64,000 nt of DNA from an uncultured virus (IMG/VR IMGVR_UViG_3300032046_001865) (IMGVR_UViG_3300032046_001865:1-64000), one strand, 5' to 3'; shown: positions 6,105-48,568, numbered from the stretch's first letter. Notes: generated from the letters alone by a model not told the origin. Translations and numbers: made by a program.

Positions 6105-6803
6105 TCAGATGATGTTCATGTCGAGGACGCTGACGATCGCGATGTGTCGTTCGTCACCCAGATCAAGGCAAACCTCAACGTCGTTGGTCAACCTGTTGGT
6201 CTCGTAGATCTTGAAACCACCAGCTAACGTGCCGTAATGTTGCAATCCTCCTGGAAAAGAAGGCCTGTACATAACGCAGGCCTCCAGAATGCACCTCACG
6301 TTAGGACCGACGTAGATCTTGTTGGGTGTAACCCCGTGTTGCTTGCGCAGTTCGTTGCTCGCATCGACGATGGTCTCGATGAGCGTCTCGTACCATTCGC
6401 GAACCGTTCCGGTGAAGACGGGTCCCATTGAGAGACTCGAGGTGAGGTCGATAGGATTACCTGTGAGCTTATTGATGAACTTTCCAGGTGCGCGAGACCA
6501 GAACATCCGAAGTTGGTAGACCTCCTGCGAAGGAGGAGCAATGGATGCGATCTTCCCACAGATCATTCCCTCCATGTAAAAGAGATCAGCCTTCACATCC
6601 TCAGCCAGGAACTTCAACCGCACGGATTCAAGAACTTTTTCAGCGGCTTTCAACGAAGGCATCCTAGTGGCGTACCTGATCTCGTAGCTGTCTGCGCTTG
6701 GCATCTGAGCAGCATAGTCACAGATGTTTTCGAACGTGACGATGACCGCGTTGTCGACAAACTGATCTTCTTTGTCTTGCCTGTATCTGTCGATGAACTT
6801 CAC
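6105..6803 (-). CDS. Protein with a C-terminal fragment resembling gp23-like major capsid protein
   Basis: WSRAPGKFINK..FTGTVREWYETLIETIVD..GTL..VLDMNII resembles recalled gp23-type MCPs of large phages. Confidence 0.7.
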   Translation of the reverse strand: MKFIDRYRQDKEDQFVDNAVIVTFENICDYAAQMPSADSYEIRYATRMPSLKAAEKVLESVRLKFLAEDVKADLFYMEGMICGKIASIAPPSQEVYQLRMFWSRAPGKFINKLTGNPIDLTSSLSMGPVFTGTVREWYETLIETIVDASNELRKQHGVTPNKIYVGPNVRCILEACVMYRPSFPGGLQHYGTLAGGFKIYETNRLTNDVEVCLDLGDERHIAIVSVLDMNII

Positions 6804-7789
6804 AAGTACCTTGTTCTTTCTATGGTGCCGCTCAAACTAGCACCGACGAACTCGTCGACAGTCTTCGCGGCATATTCTCCAACGGCCTCATGACTCATGA
6901 GCGGTCGCAAGGCGGCAGCTCGTTTCCCAAGATCGGTGCGGATCGCTGGATGATCCAACAGATGATCAATGCGTGCTTCGAGCGTCTCGTACTCGTAATC
7001 AGGCCCAAGTGACGCGTAGTGCTCCCATTCTTTCAGCGGCCAGCAGCAGTTGTTCTGCGGCAAGGCAAGGATGCATTTACCAAGCACTAAGAACTCGTAG
7101 AACTTGCGACTTGATACTCCAATGCCGGGGAAATCGAGACACACCTTCGTGCGATTGATGACGCTGTAGTACTCGTCTGGCGGCATGAGACCGTCGTAGG
7201 TGACGATGTTGAGATCCTTGCGTCGCTCCTTGATCTCAAGCAGTTTTGCGTAGCCGATGCGACGGTTGGTTGGCCAGTGTTGATTGGTGTTGCGACTCTT
7301 TGGCCAGCAGTACGGCTTGTTGTGATCGTGAACCTTACCGCCAACGAAGAGCACGTCGATGTCCTGTTCGACCTTCGGAAGCGTGTCAGCCACCTTGAAG
7401 ATGCGATCCGGGTCGTTCGTCATGAGGGCAAGCGGGTAGACATCCTCCTTGAACGGGTAGAACACGCGTTGCTCGGACGTGCTCCCATGTTGAATCTTTA
7501 AGACCATGTAGTCTGTGACCTTGTAGTGGTCGATCAGGTTCTGGAAACGCGGCCAGTTGAGCTTGATGTCGAACGGGGTGCCACCCGATCCGTCGTCGCC
7601 GTCGAAGAAGCACAGGAAGTTCTTGCCGTCGCGTTCGTACAAGAAGCACGACCAATTCTTGTTCAACGTGCTGGATGACATGTTCGCGTCCTGAACCGCT
7701 TCAGGAGCGTGCTTCTTGTAGAACTTCGTCAAGAAGTGAACGAAGTGATCGCGATCGTCAATACCGTAACGCGTGATCTTGCCGATCAT
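6800..7789 (-). CDS. Glycosyltransferase (GT-B C-terminal domain, CgeB-like)
   Basis: DIDVLFVG, YYSVINRTKVCLDFPGIG..RKFYEFLVLG. Confidence 0.7.
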   Translation of the reverse strand: MIGKITRYGIDDRDHFVHFLTKFYKKHAPEAVQDANMSSSTLNKNWSCFLYERDGKNFLCFFDGDDGSGGTPFDIKLNWPRFQNLIDHYKVTDYMVLKIQHGSTSEQRVFYPFKEDVYPLALMTNDPDRIFKVADTLPKVEQDIDVLFVGGKVHDHNKPYCWPKSRNTNQHWPTNRRIGYAKLLEIKERRKDLNIVTYDGLMPPDEYYSVINRTKVCLDFPGIGVSSRKFYEFLVLGKCILALPQNNCCWPLKEWEHYASLGPDYEYETLEARIDHLLDHPAIRTDLGKRAAALRPLMSHEAVGEYAAKTVDEFVGASLSGTIERTRYL

Positions 7790-8514
7790 GTTTCCCTCGT
7801 GTAGATCAGCTCTTTGCTGTGGTGGTGGTTGTCCGACTTGCGTCGACTGGTGACAGTTGTCCTAAACGGTTCGAAGGGAAGCCAGTCGGGGATTGTGCCT
7901 GTCTTGGGACATTCGGCCTCACACACGATGACCTGCCCTCGCAGATCAGCGATTTGACCCGTCAAACGTGTGTAATCTAACGTTTTCGCACGGTACTGGT
8001 AGTTGTACTGATACGGAGGGTCGACGAACCATGTGCCTTCAACACCAGGTTTCAGAAGCTCGAGGCCATCGACTCGAACCTTCCAGTGCTTGATGAGGTG
8101 GAACTCGCTCGCGACACGACTTCTCGTGTTCTCGGTCCACTGCCCTGACTTGTTTCCCCACGACGAGACCGTCCAGCAGCTGCCGACGTTGTTCGTTCTC
8201 TGCCACGTCTTCATGAGCAGTTCTTGACCACGGTTCATGCCGAGCTCACGCACATCCGTCCCCTCAGAGATGTTGATAGGCATCTCACGGATGCTCGCCT
8301 CGGTGGCTTCCTCGATGAGCCACCACCACAGCGCGCACACATGCTCGTCAGACTCAGCGAGCAACACGTCTTTGCGATGGTGTCGCAACGAGTAACCAGC
8401 ACTGCCCGCGAACGGCTCGATGATCATGTCATGCGTCGGCGCGGGGTAATGCTTTGCTGCTGTCCATTTCGAGCCGAACCACTTGAAGAGTGGACCTGTG
8501 ATCGTGTCACTCAT
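7786..8514 (-). CDS. N6-adenine DNA methyltransferase (D12/Dam-like)
   Basis: FKWFGSKW, EPFAGSAG, FVDPPY. Confidence 0.8.
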   Translation of the reverse strand: MSDTITGPLFKWFGSKWTAAKHYPAPTHDMIIEPFAGSAGYSLRHHRKDVLLAESDEHVCALWWWLIEEATEASIREMPINISEGTDVRELGMNRGQELLMKTWQRTNNVGSCWTVSSWGNKSGQWTENTRSRVASEFHLIKHWKVRVDGLELLKPGVEGTWFVDPPYQYNYQYRAKTLDYTRLTGQIADLRGQVIVCEAECPKTGTIPDWLPFEPFRTTVTSRRKSDNHHHSKELIYTRET

Positions 8515-9176
8515 GTTTTCTTCTTTCGAATCATGCTCGTCATGCTGTTGTCAGACGTGTAATCGTACGAATGTTCTTTCGGCAACCGCACCCAGATCGT
8601 CACGTGTTTGACGTCTTGACGAAGCGTCTCGAACACGTGACGGCTCACGTACTTGCTGTGGAAATCCTTCTCGTACTTCAGTGACTCGATCATTCTGAAG
8701 GTCGTGTGAACGAGCTTTTCGTTGTGGGCGTCAGCGGAGCAACTTTCAAGCTTTGGCAGGAAGCTCGTGTGGATGTCCTCAACAACGTAGAACCCATCCG
8801 GCTTCACATGACTCCACAGTTTAGAAAAAGTCGACTGTTGATGCTTCATCGTGTGACTACCGTCGTCAACGATAAGGTCCCATGGGCCATGCTTTTCAGA
8901 GAGTTTCACTAGCTCGTTCGTGTCGTTCGCGTCGATCTTGTGAAGTGTAACACCGTCGATGTCCCCGCAACGCTTGATGTCCAGATCGACGCCATGGATC
9001 TCCGCATTTGGAAAGTACTCACGCCACATGCGTAGACTTGCGCCAAAGAACACGCCGATCTCCAAAACCTTCAACGGCTCAGATCTGCGGTCCTCTAGTC
9101 TACGCTCGTAAACTTCGCAGTACCCGTGGTTCGCCTTGTCAGTTCCATGCTTGACAGCAATGTCGTGTAGGTTCAC
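8511..9176 (-). CDS. Class I SAM methyltransferase (sugar O-methyltransferase-like)
   Basis: GTDK, VLEIGV..GASLRMW, DDGSH, VVEDIHTS. Confidence 0.82.
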   Translation of the reverse strand: MNLHDIAVKHGTDKANHGYCEVYERRLEDRRSEPLKVLEIGVFFGASLRMWREYFPNAEIHGVDLDIKRCGDIDGVTLHKIDANDTNELVKLSEKHGPWDLIVDDGSHTMKHQQSTFSKLWSHVKPDGFYVVEDIHTSFLPKLESCSADAHNEKLVHTTFRMIESLKYEKDFHSKYVSRHVFETLRQDVKHVTIWVRLPKEHSYDYTSDNSMTSMIRKKKT

Positions 9177-9979
9177 TTTCTCTCCAAAATGATGAAGTTT
9201 TGATCGTACTTCCCACCCGAGAACCTCCCGCGCTCCAACGCGTTGAACCCCTGCATCTTGTCGATGACGTCGGCGACAACAGGCTGACGGATGTGACCGA
9301 GTGGGTCGTCAGGTTGAGGCACGCCACCGTGTGGGAGCGCTTTCACAGGGAAGGTGATCAGCACACGCGCGTCTAGACGCGTGATGTCGTGAAGGTCAGC
9401 GATGATGTTGTCTTCGGCAGTCTGATCGACATGCTCCAACACCTCGGTCAACGTCACCACGTCAAACGTTGTGTCGTACGTGTCGCGAAGACGATCGAAG
9501 CGAACGTCAAAGTGCTTCACATCCACACCAAGCAACGTCAACAGCTTGTTGTAACAGGGTGAGAAGTCGCACGTGTGAAGGTTGAGATCGTACCTGTAGT
9601 GATCGCGGTAGAGCAAGGCTCCGTGACACCCGTGCGCTGGAGCGATGTCAAGCAGCCTTCCTGCATGTGCTGCGTTTGGAAAGAAGCGAGCGTTAGCGAA
9701 CTCCGGTCGTGGAAACGTCCTCCCGTTCCTCCACGTTGGGTCGACGAACTCACGTTGAGCCCACACCTTCAACATGTCGCGTTCGTCTGTAGGGAGCGCG
9801 AAGTACACACTCAAGAAATCGTCGAACTGCGCCTTGATCCTCGCACCCGTCTCAGCGTCCATCGTGGCGAACGCAACGAGTTCATCGTGAGAGTAAGGGC
9901 TCATGGCATCACCGCCCCAGTCGATGCGGCCATTCGCGAGCTCGGAAGCGCCGAGACGCTTGAGAATGTCGTCGTTCAT
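9173..9979 (-). CDS. Class I SAM methyltransferase
   Basis: LLDIAPAHG, FDVVTLTEVLEHV, LITFP. Confidence 0.7.
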   Translation of the reverse strand: MNDDILKRLGASELANGRIDWGGDAMSPYSHDELVAFATMDAETGARIKAQFDDFLSVYFALPTDERDMLKVWAQREFVDPTWRNGRTFPRPEFANARFFPNAAHAGRLLDIAPAHGCHGALLYRDHYRYDLNLHTCDFSPCYNKLLTLLGVDVKHFDVRFDRLRDTYDTTFDVVTLTEVLEHVDQTAEDNIIADLHDITRLDARVLITFPVKALPHGGVPQPDDPLGHIRQPVVADVIDKMQGFNALERGRFSGGKYDQNFIILERK

Positions 9980-10887
9980 CAGAGGTCCTTGAACATCTTA
10001 CGGTAAGGTTCCATTCCACCCTTAGAAATCTTAAAGCGTTCCACATCTGGGATGGTTGGAATTGCTTGTGAAACGTCGTCGGCGATCGCAGAATGATGAA
10101 GAACTTGTTCGGCAATGCCGACGGGTGTTGAAACGACAGGAAGACCAATCGCTCCTGCTTCAAGAAAAGCCTGAGGTCCACCTTCGTGCACGCTTGTGAC
10201 AGCGTACAGATCGGCACATTGGTAGAATTCGTTCAAGACTGGTTGTTCTGGTCGTTCGCGATACACATACGGGGTACCTGCAGCAGCGAGGCGGCCGCAA
10301 ATATATTGCCTTCTCCATCCTGCCAAAAGCACCAGTGAGTTTGGATCTTGTTGATGTCTCTTGATGAAGAAATCGGCTAAAGCCTCAGGACCCTTTTCAC
10401 GTTTTGGAGACTTTTCGTCGTGTCCTTCTGTATCGCGCTGAGCCGAGAAAACGATATTCGCGTTCAAAGGCAAATCATGCTTCGCTCTCAACACTTGAGA
10501 ATCAGCTGTGCGTCGCCACATAGCATCATTCACCCAATACGGAACCTGTCTTACGGGTTTGTCTGTCAGGATTTCCAGTTGAGCTTTTGCGCGCGCGTTG
10601 TACACGTGATACAAATCGACGTGCTTGTCGCGGTCCATAAATTCTTCTCGCTCGTCAACGCCAAACTTGGAAGGGACGAGGTGGTGGATCGTGACGACGA
10701 CCTTTTTGTTCGGCTTGTCTTTCAAAAGATGTTTTGGAATGACTCTCCATCTCCACTCTGAGAAAATCCAAATGATGTCAGCTTGCTCAGGTCGCATCAC
10801 CGATGACTTCGGGTTGTGTTTCAACCAATCGTTTGTCAAGGTGTCACAGATCCAGTTTTCATCAGCCGGCAACATATAGATCTTCAT
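9979..10887 (-). CDS. Glycosyltransferase, GT4
   Basis: KREKGPE, YQCADLYAVTSVHEGGPQAFLEAG..PVVSTPVG; start at ATG 10887. Confidence 0.85.
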   Translation of the reverse strand: MKIYMLPADENWICDTLTNDWLKHNPKSSVMRPEQADIIWIFSEWRWRVIPKHLLKDKPNKKVVVTIHHLVPSKFGVDEREEFMDRDKHVDLYHVYNARAKAQLEILTDKPVRQVPYWVNDAMWRRTADSQVLRAKHDLPLNANIVFSAQRDTEGHDEKSPKREKGPEALADFFIKRHQQDPNSLVLLAGWRRQYICGRLAAAGTPYVYRERPEQPVLNEFYQCADLYAVTSVHEGGPQAFLEAGAIGLPVVSTPVGIAEQVLHHSAIADDVSQAIPTIPDVERFKISKGGMEPYRKMFKDL

Positions 10888-11206
10888 TGAGCGAACCTCC
10901 ATTTGAGATTTTGGTGGTGAGGTCGTGTCCCTCGACAGACCGCACCTATGTGACCTTCGCAGTAGTCGTTCGTACGAGCAGCAACCCTAATCGAGGAGTA
11001 CGCGGCAACGAACACGTCGTCCATCGTGTAACAATCAACGCGACGACACCGTACTTGTTGATTGCTCGATGGAAATGGTATTGGCTTCCGGAACGAGCGA
11101 TCGACACATGTTTGCGCCAACGTTTTTCCATGCCTTTCGACGTCCATCCAATGTAGGATTTTCCGTTTACAAGACATGTGTGACAGTAAACAACAAACCC
11201 TTTCAT
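10884..11206 (-). pseudogene. GIY-YIG homing endonuclease remnant with internal deletion and frameshift
   Basis: VVYCHTCLVNGKSYIGWT..RWRKH..AINKYG in one frame; NUMOD1-like RVDCYTMDDVFVAAYSSIRVAA..VCRG..KWRFA in another. Confidence 0.75.
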
Positions 11207-11229
11207 GCCCGAAAGGCTAGTTTATCTGT

Positions 11230-11763
11230 ATGAACTTCTGCGAAAAATATACTTTGCTTCACCGCTTGATGACCGATCACAAACGCGAGAGCTTTGTGGA
11301 GACCGGAACGTACGAGGCCAAGATGAGTCTCAAGATGTCGGATCTGACCTCGAACGTACGATCGATCGAACTTAGCGAAAAGCTTCACAACGAAGCTCTC
11401 GTACAAGTCAAGAAAGCAAAGAAGGACGGCGTAATCACGCTCATCTTGGGGAACAGCGCCGAGCAGCTGCCGAAGGCTCTAGACGGGGCTTCTAAGCCGC
11501 TCGTGTGGCTCGACGCGCACTGGTCTGCTGGGAAAACTGTGCGCGACGATAGTGGCAGCGACACCCCTATTGTGGCAGAGCTTCACGCCTTGAAGGAATG
11601 GGGAGGAGACGCCGTTATCGCAATCGATGACCTCTGGTGCTTCAACGGCAAGAACGGGTACCCTACCTTTGAGAGACTACGCGAAATCGTTCGCGAGCTG
11701 TGGCCAACGGCAACGCTCACGCGAGTCGACGAGTGCGTCTGGTTCCAGGTCGATCCCGCTTAG
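11230..11763 (+). CDS. SAM-dependent methyltransferase-like protein
   Basis: FVETGTY, SIELS, GNSA, WLDAHWS, IDD. Confidence 0.72.
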   Translation: MNFCEKYTLLHRLMTDHKRESFVETGTYEAKMSLKMSDLTSNVRSIELSEKLHNEALVQVKKAKKDGVITLILGNSAEQLPKALDGASKPLVWLDAHWSAGKTVRDDSGSDTPIVAELHALKEWGGDAVIAIDDLWCFNGKNGYPTFERLREIVRELWPTATLTRVDECVWFQVDPA

Positions 11764-11767
11764 ACGT

Positions 11768-12538
11768 TCACGACGTCTTGTCAGCGACACGACCCTTGTT
11801 GCGCTTGACACGTAGCTCGTTCAACTCGGGATCCTCGGGATCTTCGGGACGCTTCTTGAACTGCGTAGAGGTGTACTCACTCTCCAATTCAGCCTCTGTC
11901 ATTGGGACGTAGTAGTACATCGCAAGGCTGCGTCGCGTCATGCCTTCGGGACAGGTCAACGGTTCGGGATGACCGTGGTTGGATTTCATGTCGGTGCGAA
12001 AGACGACGGTGCGGTTGAAGATCGGGAGCACCTTCGACACGCATTCCGTCATTTCCTTGTTCCAGAGTTCAAGGTTGCCGCCGTAACTTGCGTCCCAGTT
12101 CTCGTTGAGGTAGACGATCATGTTGAGCTTGCGGAAAGCCTTCATCGGGCGGTGGATGTTGAAATCCTCGTGCACATCTAGCTTGCCACCTGGCTTGATC
12201 TGGTGAAGGCCACCGCCGTTGAGCGTGTGGTCTGGGACAAGGTTCTCAAGCCCGGCAAGCCGGCCAAGCTGCGCGACAACATCAGACGAGTTAGCCTCGT
12301 CGAAGAACTCGCGAAACCCAACGTCGAGCTGTGACAGATCGTTGAAGGCGAACTTTCGCTCGAGCGGGTTGTCGTACTGCCACCACTTCTTCTCCTCAAC
12401 ACTTGGGTACTTCGGCACAAGCGACCGCAACGCTTCGGGATCGATCAGGTTGTCGACGACGACATGCGGGAACGGATGACCGTTGCGGAACGACTCGATC
12501 ATCAGGTTGGTGTCGATGCGTTTGGTGAAGAACTTCAT
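11768..12538 (-). CDS. 2OG-Fe(II) oxygenase
   Basis: PFPHVVVDN, GGLH..LDVHEDFN, YLN..GGNLELW, HGHP, RRSLA. Confidence 0.87.
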   Translation of the reverse strand: MKFFTKRIDTNLMIESFRNGHPFPHVVVDNLIDPEALRSLVPKYPSVEEKKWWQYDNPLERKFAFNDLSQLDVGFREFFDEANSSDVVAQLGRLAGLENLVPDHTLNGGGLHQIKPGGKLDVHEDFNIHRPMKAFRKLNMIVYLNENWDASYGGNLELWNKEMTECVSKVLPIFNRTVVFRTDMKSNHGHPEPLTCPEGMTRRSLAMYYYVPMTEAELESEYTSTQFKKRPEDPEDPELNELRVKRNKGRVADKTS

Positions 12539-12717
12539 GACTTGTATCCTGAGCACTCGAGAGCTTCGTCTGTGAACGGCGCGTACGTCAATCCTTGATC
12601 GTCAAGTGTAACCAGCAAAACCCATTCGTTTTCGCGAAGCGTGGCGGGCATCTCGCATCGCGAGCACACATGTGTGTTGGAGTTGCGTTGCTCCTTCTGT
12701 CTGAAGTCGTGCTTCAT
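12535..12717 (-). CDS. Small hypothetical protein (CxxC)
   Basis: Overlap-coupled 60-aa ORF. Confidence 0.5.
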   Translation of the reverse strand: MKHDFRQKEQRNSNTHVCSRCEMPATLRENEWVLLVTLDDQGLTYAPFTDEALECSGYKS

Positions 12718-13151
12718 GGCTTGTACTTCTCGTTCCAGGCGTTGAGAACATGTCGATAGACCAACATGTTCGGGCGGTACTGTGGGTTGCCGAAGATCGG
12801 CGCGTCGCTGCCATTGAGCACGAGGTGAAGCGCCGCGGCAACTGCGGCCGACCGACTCTTCCCAGCAGTGCAGTGAATCACAATCTGTTGAGCGTTGGGA
12901 TGTTCCAAGACAAGATCAACGATGCGTTCTCCATCTCCAGGTTGAGCGAGCGGACAGCTTTCTTGAGTCTGTCCTGGGGCGTGCTGATCCAGATCCCAAA
13001 AGAAAAGGTTAAGCCTGCCAAGGGTATGCTCATTTGTCTTGATGTTAGCTGGCTCTTCACCCGGGCAGTTGATGGAGACAATGATGTGCGGGACGTCTGA
13101 TAGATCCATCGCCTCGATGAGGGGACGACTACAGACTTGGATGTCGATCAT
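12714..13151 (-). CDS. Protein-tyrosine/dual-specificity phosphatase-like protein
   Basis: HCTAGKSRS (CX5R) and PN motif. Confidence 0.85.
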   Translation of the reverse strand: MIDIQVCSRPLIEAMDLSDVPHIIVSINCPGEEPANIKTNEHTLGRLNLFFWDLDQHAPGQTQESCPLAQPGDGERIVDLVLEHPNAQQIVIHCTAGKSRSAAVAAALHLVLNGSDAPIFGNPQYRPNMLVYRHVLNAWNEKYKP

Positions 13152-13294
13152 GACATCCCCGAACTCTTACGCTTGAAGTAAAATTCATGCTCGTGTACAC
13201 CAACAAGCTCCCAACCTTGAGCTCCAAGTTTGTTGAGAATCTCACATCTTAACGAGTAGACAGAGATGCTCGCAACATGGTATTCCCACTTCAT
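13148..13294 (-). CDS. Small DUF4177-like protein
   Basis: Manual translation MKWEYH..LNKLGAQGWELVGV..YFKR; ATGA overlaps at both ends. Confidence 0.7.
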   Translation of the reverse strand: MKWEYHVASISVYSLRCEILNKLGAQGWELVGVHEHEFYFKRKSSGMS

Positions 13295-14262
13295 GGCCCA
13301 ACCATGTCGTGAATCCAGTTAAATGTTGTCTCTAGACCTTCGATGAGTTTCTTCTTTGGCCGCCAGCCGAGCACCTGGTCGATGAGCAGGTTGTCGCTGC
13401 AACGACCTCTGACGCCTTGAGGACCCTTGACATGCTTGACGGTGAGCTTCTTGCCCGAGATCTTGATGACCATGTCAGCGAGTTGGTTGATCGTCACCAT
13501 CTCGTCGGAGCCGATGTTCAACGGCTCTGTGTAGTCAGAACGCATGAGGCGAAGCACGCCTTCGACACATTCATCGACGTGGAGGAAGCTGCGAGTCTGC
13601 TTGCCGTCTCCCCACACCTTGATCTCGCCGCCGTCCTTCGCTTGCGCGACCTTACGACACATGGCAGCGGGAGCCTTCTCACGACCGCCGTCGTACGTGC
13701 CGAACTCGCCGAAGATGTTGTGGAACCTGGCGATGCGTACGTCGACACCCTTGTTGCGTTGGTACGCCTTGTACAGACGCTCGCTGAACAGCTTCTCCCA
13801 GCCGTACTCGGAGTCCGGAGCGGCGGGGTAAGCGGAGGCCTCGGAGCACACCGGGTTGTTAGGATCAAGCTGGTTGCGCTCGGGGTAAATGCACGCCGAG
13901 GACGAGTAAAAGATCTTTGGCTTGACATTGAGAGCGGAGACTCCGTCGAGAACGTTCAAGTTGATGGTCGCCGAGTTGTGCATGATGTCAGCGTCGTTCG
14001 CGCCGCAGAATACGAACCCGGCTCCTCCCATGTCAGCTGCCAATTGAAAGATCATGTCGAATCCTCCCGCGACGATCGCCTTCGCAAAGTACGGATCGCG
14101 TAGGTCGTCGCGAATGAACGTCTCACCTTGACTGATCTCACGAAACTCCGGCTGCTTGATGTCAACCGTCGTGATGTGATACCCGTCTTTGATGAGACGA
14201 CGTGTAAGATGTCCACCAATGAACCCGCCGCCGCCTAGAACAAGCGCTCGTTGTTTACCCAT
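13291..14262 (-). CDS. GDP-mannose 3,5-epimerase-like SDR
   Basis: GGGGFIG, LAADMGGAGF, SSACIYP, YGWEKL, GGREKAPAAMCRK, GVRGR. Confidence 0.88.
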   Translation of the reverse strand: MGKQRALVLGGGGFIGGHLTRRLIKDGYHITTVDIKQPEFREISQGETFIRDDLRDPYFAKAIVAGGFDMIFQLAADMGGAGFVFCGANDADIMHNSATINLNVLDGVSALNVKPKIFYSSSACIYPERNQLDPNNPVCSEASAYPAAPDSEYGWEKLFSERLYKAYQRNKGVDVRIARFHNIFGEFGTYDGGREKAPAAMCRKVAQAKDGGEIKVWGDGKQTRSFLHVDECVEGVLRLMRSDYTEPLNIGSDEMVTINQLADMVIKISGKKLTVKHVKGPQGVRGRCSDNLLIDQVLGWRPKKKLIEGLETTFNWIHDMVGP

Positions 14263-14263
14263 G

Positions 14264-35441: not shown

Positions 35442-35442
35442 T

Positions 35443-35652: not shown

Positions 35653-35687
35653 TAGACATCTGACGTGGAGGCGTACTTAAACAGGAA

Positions 35688-37440: not shown

Positions 37441-37472
37441 AAGCTTGATGTTGGTTATCTAGAGTCGTCTCA

Positions 37473-38405: not shown

Positions 38406-38409
38406 GAGA

Positions 38410-40815: not shown

Positions 40816-43800
40816 GCATCACCGTGAGGAAATCGGCTGTCACCGCAGCCTCCATCTCCATCCAACCAAAACCACTTGTTTCAACGTCTGCAATCGTCTC
40901 AACTACCACTAGTCAAAAACTGTCCATAACGAACATTTTGGCATCGTTGGCTGTAGCACCTGCAAAATCAAAGTTCTCGTTCGATCGCTTCGACTTCAAG
41001 GCAATCTACACAGGGTTGTACCTGACTGCACCTGATCGTCGTTACAACGATGAACTCCCACATTCGACAGCAAAGTTCACAGCGTTCGAAGAACTAAGCG
41101 GCATCGCTTCCTCTAGGCCAGACATCCTCAGCGTTTCCGAGTTCAAACCACTGTTTGAAGGAAACAACAGTGGATTCACAGCTGCAGGTGAGTTCATGGA
41201 TGCGCAAGTAAAGCTGATGAACCTACGGCATGAAGCTGTCGTCACACTCGTCAACGATCTCAAGAAGGACGAGAAGTTAGCGGAACAACTGGATCAGATC
41301 GAACGCGATTTCCTTCTACATGTGGAGAACCTGAAATCACAAGCAGATTTCTTGGTCAGCTTGCAGAAGTACATCCAACGCCTCAGCAACCTTCTTGATC
41401 TGCGTGACACCGGCACAAAGATCGATGCTGCTGCTCTGTTGGCCCAGTACTACTCGTCAATCTACAACAACGTCACGTCGGCAAAAGATACGTTGCCAAT
41501 CTTCACGTACGCTGATCTGCTTGGACAGCATGGTTTTGACAAGAAAAATGTGAATGGGTTCAGCAGCACCAAGATCCTTCTTCAAACGCTGTTTGAGGCG
41601 AAAAAGATCCTTAGAGCAGGCAGTGATTCCCTAGTGAGTGTGGATGTGTCTCTCGCTGCGAAAGACAAAGACGCGTCAACGATCAATCGACGTGTTTACA
41701 GCGATCCACACGTGAAACTCGGAAAAATCACAGACTTCCCAAGCTTTTCAGACGTTGCAACGTTTGGGATCCATAACTCAGACACCAAACGAACGTCGTA
41801 CGTGAAGCAGTTGGAAAATGGTTTCCGTGCCATCGACACTGTGTATGCAGGCGCGTCTTCAGACGAGATCGCTTACACGCTAAAATTGCGGACATTTGCC
41901 CGTGAAGCGTCGTATTCTAAAGCGTTGAACGATCCCGCGGTGTCAACTCTGTTGTCGCAGTACGGCTACCAGCTCAGCACAACTGTTGGAAATCAGCAAC
42001 TGTTTGATGCAGTTTACGGACAACTAGGAAGTCGCATCACCGACGATCGAACAGGTGTGAACGCGAACTCGTTGAGTTCGATCGCCTCTCGGATCGTCGG
42101 TGACGTCTCTGTGCTCACCTACGAGGTCGATTACCTCGAGGATGATCAGGGGAGCGTGTTCACGCCAGGCGCAGCATTTTACATTGGCTCCACGGTCAAA
42201 CCAAGTGACAACGGGTTCTCTATCGACAACGCAGCTGCTCTTGTGTCAAGACTGTCAACGATCATCGACAAATACGTGGATTTTGTCGGAAAATTCAACA
42301 TCCTACCGCGTGTTGGAAACATCCTTAACACGCAGTCTGAAACGCAGTTGATCACCGATCCTTCGTTGATGACCAACGCGTTGTACAGCATCTTTGTGGA
42401 AAGCGACGGCAACCACTTGATGAACGACGTGGAGGATAATCCAATAGTCAACCTCTTCGCAGAGGCAGCCACGAACGCGACGTTGCGCGCGAACCTGCAC
42501 CTGTACATGTGTTGCGTTGGCAACGTGACAGGCGATGGCTTGGTGGACGCCGTTGGTGCTCGTGAGAACGCCGGCGTGAGTCTGAGTCAGGAATCGTTGA
42601 ACGCGGCAGCGGCCGCTGAGAATCGCAATGCGGCCATCAGCCCAACGATTGACAAGCTCATCAACAACTGTATCTCTTACTACAAGAGCATCACGAAGGA
42701 TTCTGCACGAGCAGCCAAGATCGAACACTCGTTGAAGAATTTCAACGAGCAAGGTCCATTGGCTCGATCGATCGCCTACGTGGTTGCGGTCTACGGAACA
42801 TACAAGAAGATCGCGGAATCTAGTCCAACACGTTACTCACACCTCACAGACAACATGATGGTCGCACTGTCAGTGCAAAGCGTGTTCGACACCGCACGTC
42901 GCTACGCCTCGGCAGGTGTGAGCCAAAATGTTGCGATGTTGGCGAACCAGAACTTTGCAGCAGTCGCCAGCAGCAAAGGTTCGTTGGTCGCAAGTCTCTT
43001 TGGATCGCAAACGACGACTCAACACGTCGTTGCTGCTCCCACCACGAAGACGACCGCGAAAGCTCTTGGTCGTGTGAAGTTGCCAGCTCAACCAACCGTC
43101 GCTGTCAAGGCGCCCGTGCTGAGTAGGGCAAGGATCACCACAAAGTTGCCTTTGAAGCAAGCTGTGTTGGCAAGGTTGGATCGTGAAGAAACGCTTTCCA
43201 TTCGCACAGCGTTGGCTCCTCTCAACGCGATTCGAGTCGTTCGTGACGGGTTGAAGGATTACGTTGTCTACCTGCAAAAAGCAGACAGTGTCAAGATGAT
43301 CAACGATATCTTGGCGGTCGTTGGCGATCGAAAGCTTGTTGAACTGTTAGGTGATCGTGGGCAAGTACAACTGCTCTACAACACTGTGGAAGGCATTCTT
43401 GAGAAGATCGATCCGGCGTCGACAACAAACGCAACCGTCACCAATCTTGTCGATGTCACGTCTCTAACACGTTCGGTCGATCCGGCCGAGGATCTGAAGA
43501 TCTTCGATGACTCCTTCATCACAAGCAAGACGCTTGATGTGCTTAAGGCTGTCTTTTCGAACGCGAAGTACAACATCGCGCGAGGCTCAAACATTCGTGT
43601 CATCACCTTTGGTCTTCCACATGGCTTCGCGGCGAAGTTAAGGAACAAGTTCAAGTTGACAAGCTTTGCCGAGCAGGTAAACAGCAAGTTGAAGCAGAAC
43701 GACGTGGTGATCGCAGACGTGTACAAAGTCGACGTTCGTTACCCCGATCTTGTCTTCAAGCCGATCTCGCGCGTGTTCGAGCTGAGCCGTTTCCCAGTGC

Positions 43801-44660
43801 GTAACGAGAACAGCTTCAAGAAGGCGGGCGTAGGCATGTCTCTTGAAGACGCGTTGGATGCCGTTCCAACCAGAGATTACACGAACATCGACTCGCCTGT
43901 CACGACAACAGACGTGCCTCAATTTGGATCTGGCGCGAACGTTGCGTACGACTTCTTGACAAAACTTGATCGTTTGAGCATGATCCGTAACCACACAACA
44001 AGCTACATGCTCGAGCTCTACTTTCGCATCTTGACTGGCATCCCGTTGAGCGAGCGCGAGCTTTACATTGCCGATCCCGATGAAAATGATCGTCCTATGC
44101 CGTTCATCGTGCGTGCCGTGTTGAACAACATCACCGAAAAGACATTCAAGGCTCCGCCGCCTCCACCGACGCCGAAAGTTGTGCCTCCTATGCTCGCTAC
44201 TGCGATAGCAGAAAAAGGAAAATGGTCTGCTGTCAACGGGAAGTTCGACGTCAAAATTGAGAGCAGTGGTGCTACAAGATACCTCGTGGGAACGAAAGCA
44301 CACGCCGCGGTGATCGCACCGTTGGCCAGTAAAATGACAGTGTACATCGATCATGCCACTTCTGGCAAATACATGATGTCACCCAAGCTCTTCGAACGTG
44401 TCTTCTTTGTGGACATCGATCCTGACGACTACGAGATCGATCACGACGAGACATTCAAGACCGAAGCGGGTCGCAAAATGTTCACACAGTTGCAGCAAGC
44501 CGGCGAAGTGGTGACCATCACCAACAGTTTCGAACAGGCTAATTCGCTGTCACGCGACACCTACAAGCTCAAAGATCACACGATAGAAAAACAGATGATC
44601 TTCGAGAAGTACTTCATCACCGTTCGATCCTACGCGCCACTCCCTGTGAGGTCAATTTGA
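40812..44660 (+). CDS. Large putative virion protein
   Basis: ~1280 aa, overlap-coupled; no recognised domain. Confidence 0.55.
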   Translation: MSITVRKSAVTAASISIQPKPLVSTSAIVSTTTSQKLSITNILASLAVAPAKSKFSFDRFDFKAIYTGLYLTAPDRRYNDELPHSTAKFTAFEELSGIASSRPDILSVSEFKPLFEGNNSGFTAAGEFMDAQVKLMNLRHEAVVTLVNDLKKDEKLAEQLDQIERDFLLHVENLKSQADFLVSLQKYIQRLSNLLDLRDTGTKIDAAALLAQYYSSIYNNVTSAKDTLPIFTYADLLGQHGFDKKNVNGFSSTKILLQTLFEAKKILRAGSDSLVSVDVSLAAKDKDASTINRRVYSDPHVKLGKITDFPSFSDVATFGIHNSDTKRTSYVKQLENGFRAIDTVYAGASSDEIAYTLKLRTFAREASYSKALNDPAVSTLLSQYGYQLSTTVGNQQLFDAVYGQLGSRITDDRTGVNANSLSSIASRIVGDVSVLTYEVDYLEDDQGSVFTPGAAFYIGSTVKPSDNGFSIDNAAALVSRLSTIIDKYVDFVGKFNILPRVGNILNTQSETQLITDPSLMTNALYSIFVESDGNHLMNDVEDNPIVNLFAEAATNATLRANLHLYMCCVGNVTGDGLVDAVGARENAGVSLSQESLNAAAAAENRNAAISPTIDKLINNCISYYKSITKDSARAAKIEHSLKNFNEQGPLARSIAYVVAVYGTYKKIAESSPTRYSHLTDNMMVALSVQSVFDTARRYASAGVSQNVAMLANQNFAAVASSKGSLVASLFGSQTTTQHVVAAPTTKTTAKALGRVKLPAQPTVAVKAPVLSRARITTKLPLKQAVLARLDREETLSIRTALAPLNAIRVVRDGLKDYVVYLQKADSVKMINDILAVVGDRKLVELLGDRGQVQLLYNTVEGILEKIDPASTTNATVTNLVDVTSLTRSVDPAEDLKIFDDSFITSKTLDVLKAVFSNAKYNIARGSNIRVITFGLPHGFAAKLRNKFKLTSFAEQVNSKLKQNDVVIADVYKVDVRYPDLVFKPISRVFELSRFPVRNENSFKKAGVGMSLEDALDAVPTRDYTNIDSPVTTTDVPQFGSGANVAYDFLTKLDRLSMIRNHTTSYMLELYFRILTGIPLSERELYIADPDENDRPMPFIVRAVLNNITEKTFKAPPPPPTPKVVPPMLATAIAEKGKWSAVNGKFDVKIESSGATRYLVGTKAHAAVIAPLASKMTVYIDHATSGKYMMSPKLFERVFFVDIDPDDYEIDHDETFKTEAGRKMFTQLQQAGEVVTITNSFEQANSLSRDTYKLKDHTIEKQMIFEKYFITVRSYAPLPVRSI

Positions 44661-46519
44661 GCACATCTAAACCTTCAAGTGAGATCCACGTCATCGACGT
44701 TCCTGACGTAGGTGGGTTCACCTCGCGTTTCGTGTACAACTACCACATCAAGGATGAAGGCACGAACGGAGCTGCTGGCGTAGCGCAAGCCTTGCTGACG
44801 AAACCAGGCGAGTACTTCGACGCACACGTCGTTGACTACCTTGCGATGGCAAAAGCGCCACGCTACGTGGTCTTCACATGGAGTCCTGTCAGTTACCGTG
44901 ATCGGTTGTACGGACAGTCACCGTACTTCCAGGATGATGAGATCCCCAAAAATTACGTGCGTGACAACCTCGCAAATGTGTTGAGCGAGGAGCATTTCGC
45001 GTCCGACAAGTTCACAAGCTACAACATCAGTGATCAGAGCATTGATCGCAAGCTGTACTCGTACATCTCAGCATCAGCAAATGTGCTCAACTCGCAACGT
45101 CAGAACGCTTCGACGCAACGTGGTCTCGCGTTGCAGACGAACGAGCTCACGTCAAACCAGGTCGACTACCAGTTCCTTTCCAAGTACCTTGTGCAGCCAG
45201 CTGAGGACGGTGCGTTCTTTTACACACGTGACTCGCAACGTGTACGCAACGATGTTGTGAACAAGCTCAAGGATTTCAACATTCAGGTTCAACTCAACAA
45301 CAACATCATCCACACGTTGATCAAGCGCGCGATCGCATTTCCAGAGTCAACGTTTGACAGCGTTCACCTGCCGATGTACGAGGTCTCACGTAAGTTGCAA
45401 GGGAAAGCGCAGACACGCGGCATCAGAGACCTCAAGGCCGACGACTACAGAACCGTTGCCCCGGCGTACGTGAAGTTGAAAGCAATGAAATCAGCTGATC
45501 CAGGCCTTGCAACGCACGCTCGGATCGTTGGGTACATCATCAACCGGTACGAGATCTTGGGCGATGGACGATCAGTCGCCTTGGACCCGATCGTCATAGA
45601 GAACCCCAAAGCGTCGTCGACAGTTGACTTGAACGTGAAGTACTACGCGAGGTACCAGTACACTGTGCGTTCTGTGGCAGAGTTTAGCATCCCCTCAATC
45701 GTGGAGGATACAAACGAACTGGTGGTCTCGAAGTTCCTCATCGCCTCACGTCCAAGCGCACCACTAGTCGTGTCGTGTGTTGAGCTTGTGCCACCGCCGG
45801 CGCCGGCTGACGTGCGCTTCACATGGAACTGGGACACAGATAAACTCTTCATCAGTTGGTCGTTTCCACCCAACCCGCAACGTGACATCAAGCAGTTCCA
45901 GGTGTTTCGACGTCGCAGCACCACTGAACCGTTCGAGCTTGTGAAACAGATCTCCTTCGACGATTCCACGGTGCCTGCGCCTTACGCTGAACGCCCTGAT
46001 CCACGTCATGTAGAGGATGTCACGAACCCAAAACTCTGTTGGATCGACGACGAGTTCACACGTGATTCAAGCTTCATCTACGCGCTTGGCAGTGTAGACG
46101 CACATGGAATGGTCTCGACGTACGGTCCGCAATCGCAGGTGTCTTACCTCAAGTACCGTAACCGTCTGTCTGTTTCACGTGTCTCACCAGGCGGTGCGCC
46201 ACGCCCGTACCCAAATATGCATCTACGTGTTGACACGTTTGTCGACAGCGTGATCGAATCCAAGAAGCACACGATGAAGGTTGCCTTCGTCCCCGAACAC
46301 AACCTGATCATTGACAAGAACAACAACGACCTTGGGTTCATCAAGACAGAGGACAAGGGTGGTCACTACAAGATCCTAGCGATGAACACGGATCTAGCGA
46401 CAGCGCAGGTTGTGGACATCGTGATCAAGGATCAACGTCCAGCTGACGTTGTCCAAAAGCCACCGAGCGCTGTCGCGATCCCGGATTACGGGAACACGCT
46501 CGCGAAAAGTCTGAAGTGA
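44657..46519 (+). CDS. Putative virion protein with FN3-like region
   Basis: PPPAPADV..ISWSFP..FQVFRR..YALGSVDAHG. Confidence 0.6.
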   Translation: MSTSKPSSEIHVIDVPDVGGFTSRFVYNYHIKDEGTNGAAGVAQALLTKPGEYFDAHVVDYLAMAKAPRYVVFTWSPVSYRDRLYGQSPYFQDDEIPKNYVRDNLANVLSEEHFASDKFTSYNISDQSIDRKLYSYISASANVLNSQRQNASTQRGLALQTNELTSNQVDYQFLSKYLVQPAEDGAFFYTRDSQRVRNDVVNKLKDFNIQVQLNNNIIHTLIKRAIAFPESTFDSVHLPMYEVSRKLQGKAQTRGIRDLKADDYRTVAPAYVKLKAMKSADPGLATHARIVGYIINRYEILGDGRSVALDPIVIENPKASSTVDLNVKYYARYQYTVRSVAEFSIPSIVEDTNELVVSKFLIASRPSAPLVVSCVELVPPPAPADVRFTWNWDTDKLFISWSFPPNPQRDIKQFQVFRRRSTTEPFELVKQISFDDSTVPAPYAERPDPRHVEDVTNPKLCWIDDEFTRDSSFIYALGSVDAHGMVSTYGPQSQVSYLKYRNRLSVSRVSPGGAPRPYPNMHLRVDTFVDSVIESKKHTMKVAFVPEHNLIIDKNNNDLGFIKTEDKGGHYKILAMNTDLATAQVVDIVIKDQRPADVVQKPPSAVAIPDYGNTLAKSLK

Positions 46520-46526
46520 CGCTATC

Positions 46527-46805
46527 GTGGAAGGTGTGGAAATACCTCGAGTCCCTTGCTGCTCACATCAGATCTTCGCGTTGGTGGATGTGGACGTCAC
46601 GGTCCACCGTGTGGATCCTGACTTAGAGTTCGTCGTGTGCTCTCACTGCAACAGCGGATGGATCCGAGACGTTTCAGCGTGGACACGCTTAGACGAATCC
46701 ATGACACGATTGAACGTGCGAATAGATGCCTTGGGTGTACACATCAAGAAGATAGTAGACAGCACTAATGAGCTCGCGGCCGCGTTGCTGAAAGCAGATA
46801 CGTGA
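46527..46805 (+). CDS. Hypothetical protein
   Basis: CC..CSHC motif; coupled. Confidence 0.5.
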   Translation: MEGVEIPRVPCCSHQIFALVDVDVTVHRVDPDLEFVVCSHCNSGWIRDVSAWTRLDESMTRLNVRIDALGVHIKKIVDSTNELAAALLKADT

Positions 46806-47311
46806 GCCTTCTCATCTTACACGAGCCAGGCAACCGAGAAGCCTTGGCTGACATCCTCGGTGACATACAGGCACCATTGGTGGAGAAACCAACCGAGGAA
46901 TGGCTCACGACGCTCGTGGCGTGGATGGTTGACGAGCAGCCAGACGACGCTCGCGCGATCTACGTGTCGAACGACGCTACGTTCGCCGACGCGTTGCAGC
47001 TCACATGCGATGTTGGCGCTCGGTTGGAGGCTGAACTAGCTGGTAGGTTCAAGAAGATCGTCCCTGTTGAGGGAGCTGTCATCCCATTCACCAGCCTTGA
47101 TGGGGAACTATCGGCCTGTGTGGTCGATAACGTCAAGCTGACGATCATGAGCGAGGATCCAAGGGAGATCACCTGCGCGCTCGCTGCCGAGATGCTGAAG
47201 GCCGATCCATCGCACGACACCCTGTTCATCCGTCAGCTGATCAGGAAGTACACTGTGTCAGCTGGGTTTAGTCGTTACGACACACGTTTCGCAACCGCGA
47301 AGACGGCGTAG
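46802..47311 (+). CDS. Hypothetical protein
   Basis: GTGA-coupled ORF. Confidence 0.55.
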   Translation: MSLLILHEPGNREALADILGDIQAPLVEKPTEEWLTTLVAWMVDEQPDDARAIYVSNDATFADALQLTCDVGARLEAELAGRFKKIVPVEGAVIPFTSLDGELSACVVDNVKLTIMSEDPREITCALAAEMLKADPSHDTLFIRQLIRKYTVSAGFSRYDTRFATAKTA

Positions 47312-47314
47312 TTA
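47309..47314 (+). promoter_or_regulatory. TAGTTA, representative of a recurrent TANNTA putative late-promoter motif
   Basis: Similar hexamers lie 5-13 nt upstream of about 10 probable late genes. Confidence 0.5.
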
Positions 47315-47320
47315 CAAGGC

Positions 47321-47629
47321 ATGGACGAACAAGCTCTTCGAAAGTACGTGCGCACGATCTTGGAAGGTGCGATGAGCGAATCGATGACCGACAAGCAGCT
47401 TCTGCAGAAGGTCGACAACGGCCCGTTCCACTCGATGCCGATCGATGAACTCTCTCCAGAAGAGGTTGAGGCGGCTGAGACGTTGACGATGCGCGGGTTG
47501 CTCCGTCGCATGCCGGCGACAAACCGCTTCCCTGAGCGTTTCGTGCTCACCGCCGGAGGCAGTCACGCAACCGGCACGTTCGCCTCAGACACACTTCACG
47601 ACGAGAAGCCACGCCGTCGACGATACTGA
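47321..47629 (+). CDS. Hypothetical protein, possible head-internal protein
   Basis: LRKYVRTILEG N-terminal motif; TAGTTA upstream. Confidence 0.6.
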   Translation: MDEQALRKYVRTILEGAMSESMTDKQLLQKVDNGPFHSMPIDELSPEEVEAAETLTMRGLLRRMPATNRFPERFVLTAGGSHATGTFASDTLHDEKPRRRRY

Positions 47630-47663
47630 AGACAGCTAAAGTGACGGTCATGAGAACCTGGCT

Positions 47664-47945
47664 GTGACCGACGAGTACGCGTTGCTGATGGCCTTGGTTG
47701 AGCATGCCGAGTCAGGCGAGGCTGCCTACGAGCTGAGCGTCGACGTCGAGCACGTCGAGCAGACAGGTGACATCTACCGCACGTGCTGCGCCGTGTACGT
47801 TGACGGGGAGCAAGCGTTCTTGATCGACATGAAAGAGCTGTCCACGTGGCTGATCTCGCCGAGCAGGCTGAGGCCTTTCGGCAACGTTTACATACGAAAC
47901 AGACATCGCAAGGATTTCAGGCTTGAAGACGAACCGATGAAGTAG
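47664..47945 (+). CDS. Small protein, paralog of 48287..48568
   Basis: MTD..LL..L...AES...A..L.V....V.VDG.Q pattern shared. Confidence 0.6.
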   Translation: MTDEYALLMALVEHAESGEAAYELSVDVEHVEQTGDIYRTCCAVYVDGEQAFLIDMKELSTWLISPSRLRPFGNVYIRNRHRKDFRLEDEPMK

Positions 47946-48289
47946 GTTCTTGACATGTGTAAGACCAAACTGCAGCAACTGCGGATGTCGAAATGCGAGA
48001 ACAAGCTGTTCTCCTGCAGCGTTCATAAAATCGCCGAGAAGGCTGACGAACTCAACGAGCTGTTCAAGGATGGATGGCTCACTGAGGAGACGCAGGTCGT
48101 CGGCGACACGTACCTTGTGCTCTTGAAGAAGGAGCATTCCGGACGCAAGGTGTTCTACGTCGACGTGGGCAACATGGCGCCGGAGGAGGTCACAGCGTAC
48201 ATGGATCGTGTGAAGGAGCTGACGTCTAACCCGGACAAGGATAGCGACTTCTACATCCCAGGCAGGTGATCGCGTAGGTTCTTGACATG
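47942..48289 (+). repeat. 16-bp perfect direct repeat GTAGGTTCTTGACATG (47942-47957 and 48274-48289)
   Basis: Read directly; each copy ends in the ATG of a small gene. Confidence 0.9.
47955..48269 (+). CDS. Small protein carrying a portal (clip-region) fragment
   Basis: RKVFYVDVGNMAPEEVTAYMDRVK versus portal RRVFYVDVGGVAPDEIGAYMEAAK. Confidence 0.8.
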   Translation: MCKTKLQQLRMSKCENKLFSCSVHKIAEKADELNELFKDGWLTEETQVVGDTYLVLLKKEHSGRKVFYVDVGNMAPEEVTAYMDRVKELTSNPDKDSDFYIPGR

Positions 48290-48568
48290 ACGGACGCTAT
48301 GACCATGCTGCTCAACCTGATCACCCTCGCTGAATCCGACCCGACAGCGATCAAGCTTGAGGTGAGCCGTACGTACTACGATCCAGAGGACTTCACGCCA
48401 CGTAAGACGGTGAGGGTTGACGGCTCTCAGGTGTGCGTCGTGGAGCTTGCAGACGTGATGGAGGCGTCGAAGGACTGGCCCGCTCTGCGACACGAGACGC
48501 TAGAGAAGTACATGCCAACGTTGAAGCCGGGGATGATCCCGGTGGGGGAGCCGGTCGAGGACTCGTGA
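48287..48568 (+). CDS. Small protein carrying a capsid-like DPEDFTPRK motif
   Basis: LEVSRTYYDPEDFTPRKTV resembles the gp23-type motif that follows YxPY. Confidence 0.6.
   Translation: MTDAMTMLLNLITLAESDPTAIKLEVSRTYYDPEDFTPRKTVRVDGSQVCVVELADVMEASKDWPALRHETLEKYMPTLKPGMIPVGEPVEDS

Follow-up and report, generated by a model that had tools for sequence, protein, structure and literature searches.

Mini-genes copying segments of the capsid and portal proteins in a T4-like jumbo phage

Why would a phage keep small, free-standing genes for pieces of its own head proteins? The question is raised by a 64,000-nucleotide stretch of DNA from an uncultured virus (bases 1-64000 of the 72,728-bp IMG/VR record IMGVR_UViG_3300032046_001865, denoted G000), which we refer to as the window. 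From the sequence alone, three short open reading frames (ORFs) at 6105, 47955 and 48287 had been proposed to form a set of trimmed head-protein fragments, fused to unrelated carriers and possibly serving as decoys for bacterial immune sensors; we call this proposal the sequence-only reading. Here we show that the three ORFs are real, selected mini-genes that carry copies of segments of the phage's own head proteins. The record, which CheckV estimates to be ∼20% complete, contains T4-type head and packaging genes. Relatives with the same type of major capsid protein (MCP) reach 309-318 kb at 91-93% completeness, and the virus is therefore a jumbo T4-like phage; the nearest isolates are only ∼40% identical in the large terminase (TerL). 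Relatives were searched in 30 records (G000-G029), three of which are at least 82% complete (G002, G003 and G004); most of the others are 16-61% complete, so that absence from them means little.

Translated in six frames, the 72,728-bp record holds 622 ORFs that are 40 amino acids or longer, and BLASTP was used to compare the three ORFs with each of them. As the sequence-only reading had stated, the MCP gene is not in the window; it lies just beyond it, at record positions 69803-71713, and encodes a gp23-type protein of 636 residues. The portal gene (record positions 62249-64312, plus strand, held by the window up to 64000) was identified by matches to Pfam Portal_T4 (E 8.7e-71) and 3ja7 (E 7e-27). 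Residues 100-201 of ORF 6105 aligned with MCP residues 448-562 (49.6% identity over 115 residues, E 1e-31), residues 48-87 of ORF 47955 with portal residues 230-269 (45% over 40 residues, E 5e-7; source-like segment at 62936-63055), and residues 22-42 of ORF 48287 with MCP residues 591-611 (52% over 21 residues, E 5e-4). The last of these matches is short and the weakest of the three; about 0.3 chance matches are expected at that E value over 622 queries by our own arithmetic, and it is therefore marginal on its own. Profiles recovered the same places in the head proteins. In an all-against-all comparison of the 622 ORFs, only six non-overlapping pairs were found at E<1e-3: the three pairs of mini-gene and head protein, two antisense shadows of the first of them, and one pair of tail-fibre-like genes that are alike at their C-terminal ends. 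Accordingly, in three of the four genuine paralog pairs one partner is a small ORF and the other a head protein. The whole of the MCP gene is covered on the opposite strand by a 652-residue open frame (record positions 69773-71731, minus strand, beyond the window); a similar antisense frame gives rise to the 'shadow' matches to ORF 6105. Intact homologs of all three ORFs, in which the motifs are conserved, were found outside this assembly.

ORF 6105 (6105..6803, minus strand) is an intact gene for a protein of 232 residues, denoted the A-domain mini. Its alignment with the MCP opens at WSRAPGKF, is ∼80% identical through GTVREWYETLIETI and less so afterwards; the C-terminal strands at the ends of the two proteins are also alike (VLDMNII in the mini, LMDMSII in the MCP). 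Residues 100-152 (6348..6506) comprise a near-invariant MCP-like motif (WSRxPGKFVNKLTG...GPxFTGTVREWYETLxETIxD) that forms a loop and the start of the first A-domain helix. AlphaFold2, run on a 35-row alignment, yielded a very confident model, with a predicted local distance difference test score (pLDDT) of 94.1 and a predicted template modelling score of 0.83. In this model, residues 91-232 (6108..6533) adopt the fold of an HK97-type A-domain without the P-domain hairpin. They superpose (VIA-align) on the A-domains of T4 gp24 (5vf3_a; Z 11.8, root-mean-square deviation 2.8, 115 residues), gp23 (7vrt, chain residues 313-521; Z 11.3) and HK97 gp5 (Z 7.2), and on the 94-residue stand-alone protein PF0899 (2pk8; Z 8.2, root-mean-square deviation 2.8, 85 residues). 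A search of 48,161 representative chains gave HK97-fold shell proteins or 2pk8 in all but two of the 50 matches shown. The similarity is to A-domains only, and ORF 6105 is not a complete HK97 fold. The MCP row of the alignment contains ∼44 residues (ETGFVYAPYVPL...RSDFY) that are absent from every mini; in the HK97 fold these correspond to the P-domain hairpin inserted between A-domain strands, and the A-domain piece is thus cut at both domain boundaries.

The remainder of the protein, residues 1-90 (6534..6803; helix 2-32, a strand, helix 51-67 and a hairpin), is an orphan domain confined to nine full-length orthologs. Its profile is unlike that of the MCP (hhalign probability 0.2%), as expected of the unrelated carrier that had been proposed, and it has no clear fold match among the 48,161 chains, in which two weak rows reached Z 5.9-6.2; an Atlas search was likewise without a usable match. 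For ORF 6105 as a whole, no Pfam family was found at E≤0.01, including Gp23 (PF07068) and DUF1884 (PF08967), and tblastn against a phage collection returned one unannotated metagenomic record only. Compared with the A-domain of gp23-type MCPs (PF07068; T4 gp23/gp24, PDB 5vf3, 7vrt, 6uzc, 1yue) and of its own MCP, ORF 6105 is thus alike in sequence (50% over 115 residues), fold (Z 10-11.8), clade-specific loop and helix motif, and C-terminal strand. It differs by the absence of the N-arm, E-loop, spine helix, P-domain and insertion domain, and cannot tile a shell; by its orphan N-terminal domain; by its far faster evolution; and by its position outside the MCP clade.

The history of this family was traced with a word-indexed search; of its 315 candidates, which are 127-406 residues long, 107 had E≤0.001. 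We aligned 34 of the 107 with the C-terminal part of the MCP: nine full-length orthologs (232-241 residues, 33-55% identity) and 25 shorter forms (132-212 residues) without the Pfam Gp23 label. The 73 proteins left out are mostly Gp23-labelled pieces on short contigs. Relatives of 132-170 residues consist of the A-domain alone, to which the 232-residue form adds the 90-residue domain. Ten residues are invariant in the 35 sequences (W102, G107, F109, G115, G132, R135, W137, Y138, E139 and T140), and all ten are shared with the MCP. A quick IQ-TREE analysis combined 40 minis with 60 MCPs, the latter being the first 60 distinct ones from 136 loci with an MCP-like ORF; one branch of the resulting tree parts all MCPs from all minis, with a support of 99 in the Shimodaira-Hasegawa-like approximate likelihood ratio test. 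End branches are ∼0.05 changes per column for the MCPs and 0.3-5 for the minis, in which the motif is nevertheless retained; the long branches make the inner order of the tree unreliable. The split therefore indicates that the minis stem from one or more old duplications and not from each genome's current MCP, and that they have evolved much faster. At the DNA level, the best 53 codons of the mini and MCP codons 448-500 are identical at 117 of 159 nucleotides (74%) and at 29 of 53 third positions (55%), and the mini is therefore not a recent copy of the MCP. The idea that the own MCP gave rise to the mini by gene conversion or a recent copying event was rejected on both grounds, as the minis do not group with the MCP of their own genome. 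A related-locus search seeded with the protein P0012 led mostly to MCP loci. Among the 30 records, A-domain minis were located in G000, G001, G002 (three, of which one was found only by frame reading), G003 (a single copy) and G011 (a tandem pair); none is present in G004, at 82% completeness.

The second mini-gene, ORF 47955 (47955..48269, plus strand), is likewise intact and encodes a protein of 104 residues, denoted the mini-portal. Its seven database homologs (103-108 residues, 60-75% identity) show that the whole protein is conserved, with KVFYVDV invariant and a tip that varies (GNM, GGV, GDL, GGM, GDM, SGM). The portal-like segment, residues 48-93 (48096..48233), comprises the end of a stem helix, the first clip strand (KVFYVDVG), the tip (GNM) and a clip helix. 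Residues 230-269 of the own portal align with residues 266-305 of T4 gp20, so that residues 48-87 of the mini correspond to T4 residues 266-305. Sun et al. 2015 (PMC4493910) assign gp20 residues 255-278 and 359-377 to the stem and 279-358 to the clip; by these limits the segment contains the end of stem helix α5, the first clip strand, the tip and helix α6, which amounts to roughly the initial 30 of the clip's 80 residues. With 104 residues and only T4 266-305 in common, the protein is not a dodecamer-forming portal with wing, stem, clip and crown. The proposal that the pieces are trimmed at structural boundaries is supported for the A-domain, from which the hairpin is excised, and is only partly right for the portal piece, which is not a whole domain. 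Against Pfam Portal_T4 (PF07230), ORF 47955 scored 20.2 bits, below the cut-off of 22.9, over profile positions 206-232 only. The AlphaFold2 model of the mini-portal is poor (pLDDT 58.3), and the Foldseek rows obtained with it are meaningless.

A profile of the mini-portal family matches the portal at model positions ∼48-90 in G002, G003 and G004; in 22 of 25 further records it has one match in a large open frame (635-1654 residues), a candidate portal. The mini-portal gene itself is present in three of the 30 records only (G000, G001 and G026). A weak match of the profile in G003 (a 223-residue ORF, E 1e-3) was taken as chance, as this ORF resembles a neck or tail-module protein. Between the mini-portal and its G026 ortholog (TerL 79% identical), the ratio of nonsynonymous to synonymous substitution rates (dN/dS), taken over 104 codons, is ∼0.15, whereas TerL gives 0.06; both ratios are rough because dS approaches saturation. 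This ratio and the ten invariant residues of the A-domain family run counter to neutral evolution of the fragments. A 141-residue ORF on the minus strand (47712-48137) was rejected as the real gene because the conserved protein families lie on the plus strand. No RNA run was listed as containing 46500-49600. A 49.9-kb contig from DNA runs spans the mini-portal stretch with eight differences, too few to measure selection. A scan for sigma-70 promoters and terminators gave nothing above shuffled background, and the T4 late-promoter word TATAAATA had no match.

ORF 48287 (48287..48568, plus strand), the third mini-gene, is intact and encodes a protein of 93 residues; its residues 22-42 (IKLEVSRTYYDPEDFTPRKTV; 48350..48412) resemble the P-loop of the MCP. 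Two homologs (62% and 71% identity) retain SRTYYDPEDFTPRK or SRTYHDVEDFVPRK, and a hairpin profile made from the three sequences (model positions 24-44) matches the MCP hairpin in G000, G002, G003 and G004, where it is the sole match outside the family (E 0.006-0.03). A pattern scan for the hairpin family yielded pattern-selected, unrelated ORFs only. The family is under weaker constraint than the mini-portal, with proportions of nonsynonymous and synonymous differences of 0.37 and 0.77, respectively. A fourth ORF of 93 residues (47664..47945, plus strand) is a paralog of ORF 48287 (29% over 59 residues; profile match E 2.7e-4) in which the MCP-like motif has been lost. The G026 counterpart of this paralog carries ILDPNDFTPR, and the G026 ortholog of ORF 48287 the degraded YELEDFCSR.

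Two of the genes had been noted to share a 16-bp leader. This leader, GTAGGTTCTTGACATG, is present exactly twice, at 47942..47957 (plus strand), where it holds the upstream stop TAG and the start ATG, and at 48274..48289 (plus strand); the two copies thus form a direct repeat that flanks the mini-portal gene. Both are also found in G001, and G026 keeps TAGGTT only. The order paralog, mini-portal, ORF 48287 is maintained in G000, G001 and G026, with extra ORFs inserted in the last. The repeat and the order pattern look like cassette-type shuffling. As a set, therefore, the two adjacent genes hold together in these three genomes, whereas the A-domain gene does not belong with them: it belongs to a sugar operon on the opposite strand, at a distance of 41 kb, is part of a different and much wider family, and is present in genomes without the other two. 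It is separate from the pair in place, strand, family and distribution.

The near-complete relative G002 (318 kb) extends the repertoire, with at least six mini-genes carrying capsid pieces. An all-against-all comparison of its 481 called genes gave 90 pairs at E<1e-3; eight of these pair a small protein with a much larger one, and five of the eight involve the MCP, namely one A-domain mini and four further small genes (147663-148352, 303567-304097, 86383-86721 and 103223-103549). The four products are a 229-residue and a 176-residue protein that share the N-terminal region of the MCP (residues ∼18-110), a 112-residue protein ending in KGVSFVDAGHVYAPYVPLQITPKL, a match to MCP 572-595, and a 108-residue protein ending in a copy of MCP 95-123. 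The latter two have their MCP pieces at the C-terminal ends, and their N-terminal parts look alike (GDL[VI]W). All five small genes also match the MCP of G000. MCP residues 72-123 align with T4 gp23 residues 83-134, the region of the Gol peptide, which binds EF-Tu and activates Lit. The copied segment 95-123 is within this Gol-like region. According to a review (PMC3014915), the Gol region of gp23 is 29 residues long, lies within the first quarter of the protein and is its most conserved part.

Small proteins with one or two clip motifs are widespread as well. HMMER, run over 1.84 billion representatives with the mini-portal family, returned 27 proteins at E≤0.001, eight of which (97-106 residues) are clear members. 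Fifteen clip-motif sequences were inspected. A tandem double motif is present in six of them (P0127, P0128, P0129, P0132, P0134 and P0142; 93-201 residues, from other metagenomes), and these six match phrog_12349 and/or phrog_23805, both without an assigned function; two of the 15 look like portal pieces after an intein-like HNT end. Among the 13 small clip-motif proteins scanned, Pfam Portal_T4 was above cut-off in six, phrog_12349 matched six and phrog_23805 four. ORF 47955 has the same portal clip motif as the small proteins of these two families; it differs from phrog_12349 in that the match is weak (E 0.005, 13.4 bits, profile positions 55-84, with a profile that also matches portals) and in having its own conserved N-terminal half. 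With P0129 as the tblastn query, the phage collection yielded a single metagenomic record, which has no annotation. The sequences suggest that the clip motif itself may be the functional unit.

The surroundings of the A-domain minis show a second regularity. In the window, the GTG start of the mini overlaps (GTGA) the stop of an upstream glycosyltransferase-like gene of 329 residues (6800..7789, minus strand; Pfam Glyco_trans_1_2 E 5.6e-4, below cut-off), and a UDP-glucose dehydrogenase-like gene (4318..5238, minus strand; Pfam UDPG_MGDP_dh_N 1.7e-26) lies two genes downstream. The ortholog at locus L006 (33% identical) is flanked by a homologous glycosyltransferase-like gene of 307 residues, which precedes it, and by the dehydrogenase, and the G003 mini overlaps the end of the dehydrogenase gene. 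In G002, one mini has group-1 glycosyltransferases on one side and GDP-sugar/heptose-type genes on the other, and a further mini is near neck and tail genes. The G011 pair is beside tail sheath and tube genes, so that the sugar-cluster setting applies to four of six loci examined: the link to sugar genes is conserved, not universal. The two glycosyltransferases adjoining one of the G002 A-domain minis (L174, 4341-6763) match Pfam GT4-conflict, one of them at 31 bits with a cut-off of 26; this Pfam family is the 'Family 4 glycosyltransferase in conflict systems'. In two relatives, the block of A-domain mini and dehydrogenase is followed by a gene for a cytidylyltransferase-like and NUDIX fusion (L006, 5980-7017; L172, 7374-9825), which resembles an NadR-type NAD salvage enzyme; in G003 a gene of 462 residues comes after it.

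What could such pieces do? Judging from the segments they carry, the minis are probably generic interface mimics, each presenting one assembly-contact surface on a small soluble protein. The A-domain mini retains the whole A-domain with the loop and helix of the capsomer interface, the mini-portal has the clip strand, tip and helix, and ORF 48287 the P-loop motif. The best-conserved stretch of the A-domain mini is the loop and first main helix, and Andreas & Giessen (PMC8346489) describe the two main A-domain helices as the main inter-subunit interface. Unable to enter the capsid or the portal ring themselves, the minis might act by competitive mimicry, taking the place of the unassembled monomer on its usual partner.

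Which partner this would be is a more tentative matter. One possibility, which we put forward with reserve, is that the minis are non-activating decoys for host pattern-recognition proteins that read these surfaces on head-protein monomers or on the portal ring. The likeliest partners would then be sensors of the Avs7/8/10 type for the A-domain interface and of the Avs4/Avs11/SpbK type for the stem and clip of the portal. A monovalent or truncated copy could bind such a sensor and leave it off, because the other contacts, or the clustering, that activation requires would be missing. The N-domain of SpbK attaches to the clip helix of the portal, and clustering on the dodecamer activates it (PMC12847820); a monovalent copy could block a clustering-dependent sensor. 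We favour immune decoys because the patchy, fast-evolving distribution in accessory regions and the tandem motif variants fit a conflict-type role better than core assembly; the direct repeat around the mini-portal gene is a further hallmark of accessory genes. DSAD1, which acts against DSR2 (PMC11087589), and PLE Gpi, which acts against TerL, belong to the phage or satellite proteins that bind where a structural trigger would or block the packaging motor. They too are small and accessory, and their interference takes place at the interface of a virion protein; their abstracts do not describe them as copies of the phage's own structural protein, whereas the minis are homologous to such a protein. 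Taken further, and with more doubt, T4-like jumbo phages might carry a 'self-epitope' repertoire of monovalent mini-genes (A-domain interface, portal clip, P-loop and, in a relative, the Gol-like region) that jams receptors, as a general, undescribed anti-immunity strategy. Our literature search turned up no description of phage-encoded copies of a phage's own capsid or portal pieces.

Several points weigh against a decoy role. It does not explain the synteny and start/stop overlap with sugar enzymes at four of the six loci. The surfaces read by sensors are also the assembly interfaces and the best-conserved segments, and BLAST detects conserved pieces only; the same coincidence would thus arise if the minis were assembly regulators, and it constitutes weak evidence. 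Binding of a fragment might, moreover, switch a sensor on and not block it, as core fragments sufficed to activate several Avs families (PMC13581612). Among the neighbouring genes, no known anti-defence gene was identified.

Nearly as likely as immune decoys is a role in the phage's own head assembly and packaging, which we also regard as tentative. The A-domain mini would cap new MCP monomers on the face that forms capsomers until scaffold-driven assembly, and the clip mimic would bind the own TerL (60063..61754, plus strand; phrog_2 1.8e-50, Pfam Terminase_6N), its candidate partner, where the portal docks and hold it inactive until proheads are ready. According to PMC4493910, the T4 portal clip docks the terminase gp17 and the neck protein gp13, the gp20 tip residues N291, M292, R295 and K296 touch gp17, and a 24-residue gp20 peptide (288-311) binds gp17 and inhibits packaging. 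Residues 70-93 of the mini-portal align with this peptide via the own portal and keep G-N-M at the tip, where the own portal has G-G-V. The mini-portal is thus alike in segment, in the strand KVFYVDVG and in the tip; the T4 peptide is synthetic, whereas the mini-portal is a natural free-standing gene that holds the first part of the clip only and for which TerL binding is a candidate activity. The ∼80% identity between the interface loop and helix of the A-domain mini and those of the own MCP points in the same direction, as does the orientation that the small genes of the plus-strand block share with the head and packaging genes. Core assembly factors, however, are expected to be universal and located in the head module, whereas the minis are patchy (none in G004; the mini-portal in three of 30 records), fast-evolving and found in accessory regions. 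The tip residues, moreover, vary among the mini-portal homologs, and blocking the own terminase or capsomers would be costly.

For ORF 6105 only, the sugar genes raise the alternative of an enzyme-associated helper of the kind seen in Family 4 A-domain encapsulins, or of an adaptor that presents the capsid protein to glycosylation enzymes. Family 4 proteins (DUF1884/PF08967; PF0899, 2PK8) are stand-alone HK97 A-domains encoded directly downstream of enzymes, which they may stabilise (PMC8346489). ORF 6105 has this arrangement in part, with its glycosyltransferase-like and dehydrogenase neighbours and start/stop overlap in the sugar clusters of the window, L006, G003 and one G002 locus, and its fold matches that of 2PK8 (Z 8.2, as above). 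It differs in being phage-encoded, clearly derived from a gp23-type MCP, extended by an N-terminal domain and placed beside other enzymes; in the same source, Family 4 encapsulins are reported only from thermophilic Euryarchaeota and two genera of Bacteroidetes (Andreas & Giessen 2021, PMC8346489). We regard both versions as unlikely. Two of the six loci are outside sugar clusters, Pfam DUF1884 is not matched, and the near-invariance of the MCP-like interface motif is left unexplained; the adaptor version has no evidence of glycosylation on this capsid behind it, and neither version has anything to say on ORF 47955 and ORF 48287.

Somewhat less probable still are weapons against co-infecting related phages, by dominant-negative poisoning of capsomers or by blocked docking of terminase and portal. 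The same interface logic applies, and the patchy, fast-evolving distribution fits; there is also a satellite precedent in PLE Gpi, which binds the TerL of ICP1 and blocks packaging (bioRxiv 10.1101/2024.04.22.590561). Against this, the copied motifs are closest to the consensus of the phage's own clade, its own proteins would suffer too, and no immunity mechanism is visible. That the ORFs are non-functional recombination relics or chance similarities is very improbable, and for ORF 6105 and ORF 47955 largely refuted: the hairpin motif of ORF 48287, with its 21 residues and ∼0.3 matches expected by chance, and the loss of this motif in the paralog are countered by intact frames, families with invariant residues, the dN/dS of the mini-portal, the very confident model of ORF 6105 and the recurrence of the same pieces in other genomes.

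Several further features of the window and its relatives were recorded in passing. Some 30 kb of the window (1180-30959), mostly on the minus strand, consists mainly of methyltransferase, glycosyltransferase and nucleotide-sugar genes; genes of the epimerase, cupin and UDP-glucose dehydrogenase types are also present in it. For a phage, such an island of sugar-modification genes is very large. Between SbcD-like (55370-55969) and SbcC-like (56844-59390) genes lies an HNH/homing-endonuclease-like gene of 293 residues (55966-56847), the ends of which overlap with both. The adjacent large genes at 49642-50880 and 50896-53265 have 85 C-terminal residues in common (31% identity, E 1e-5), the second with Laminin_G_3; they are possibly paralogous fibre or receptor-binding proteins. 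At two loci of the relatives, in G002 (L173, 11776-13700) and G011 (L180, 9062-12384), at least five small paralogous genes whose products begin MKITE... or MKIK(P/S)LIFE... lie in tandem close to head or tail modules.

Bacterial receptors have recently been shown to recognise conserved surfaces of capsid and portal monomers, and how phages answer, beyond point mutation, is largely open. If the minis are decoys, the repertoire of copied pieces would map what host sensors recognise and would offer counter-measures that are open to direct test. Should the minis act on the phage itself instead, head assembly and DNA packaging would be subject to a further, new level of control. Since clip-motif minis are also present in isolated phages (two PHROG families), experiments are feasible. 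Finally, a natural free-standing A-domain bears on the origin of truncated HK97-fold proteins such as the Family 4 encapsulins.

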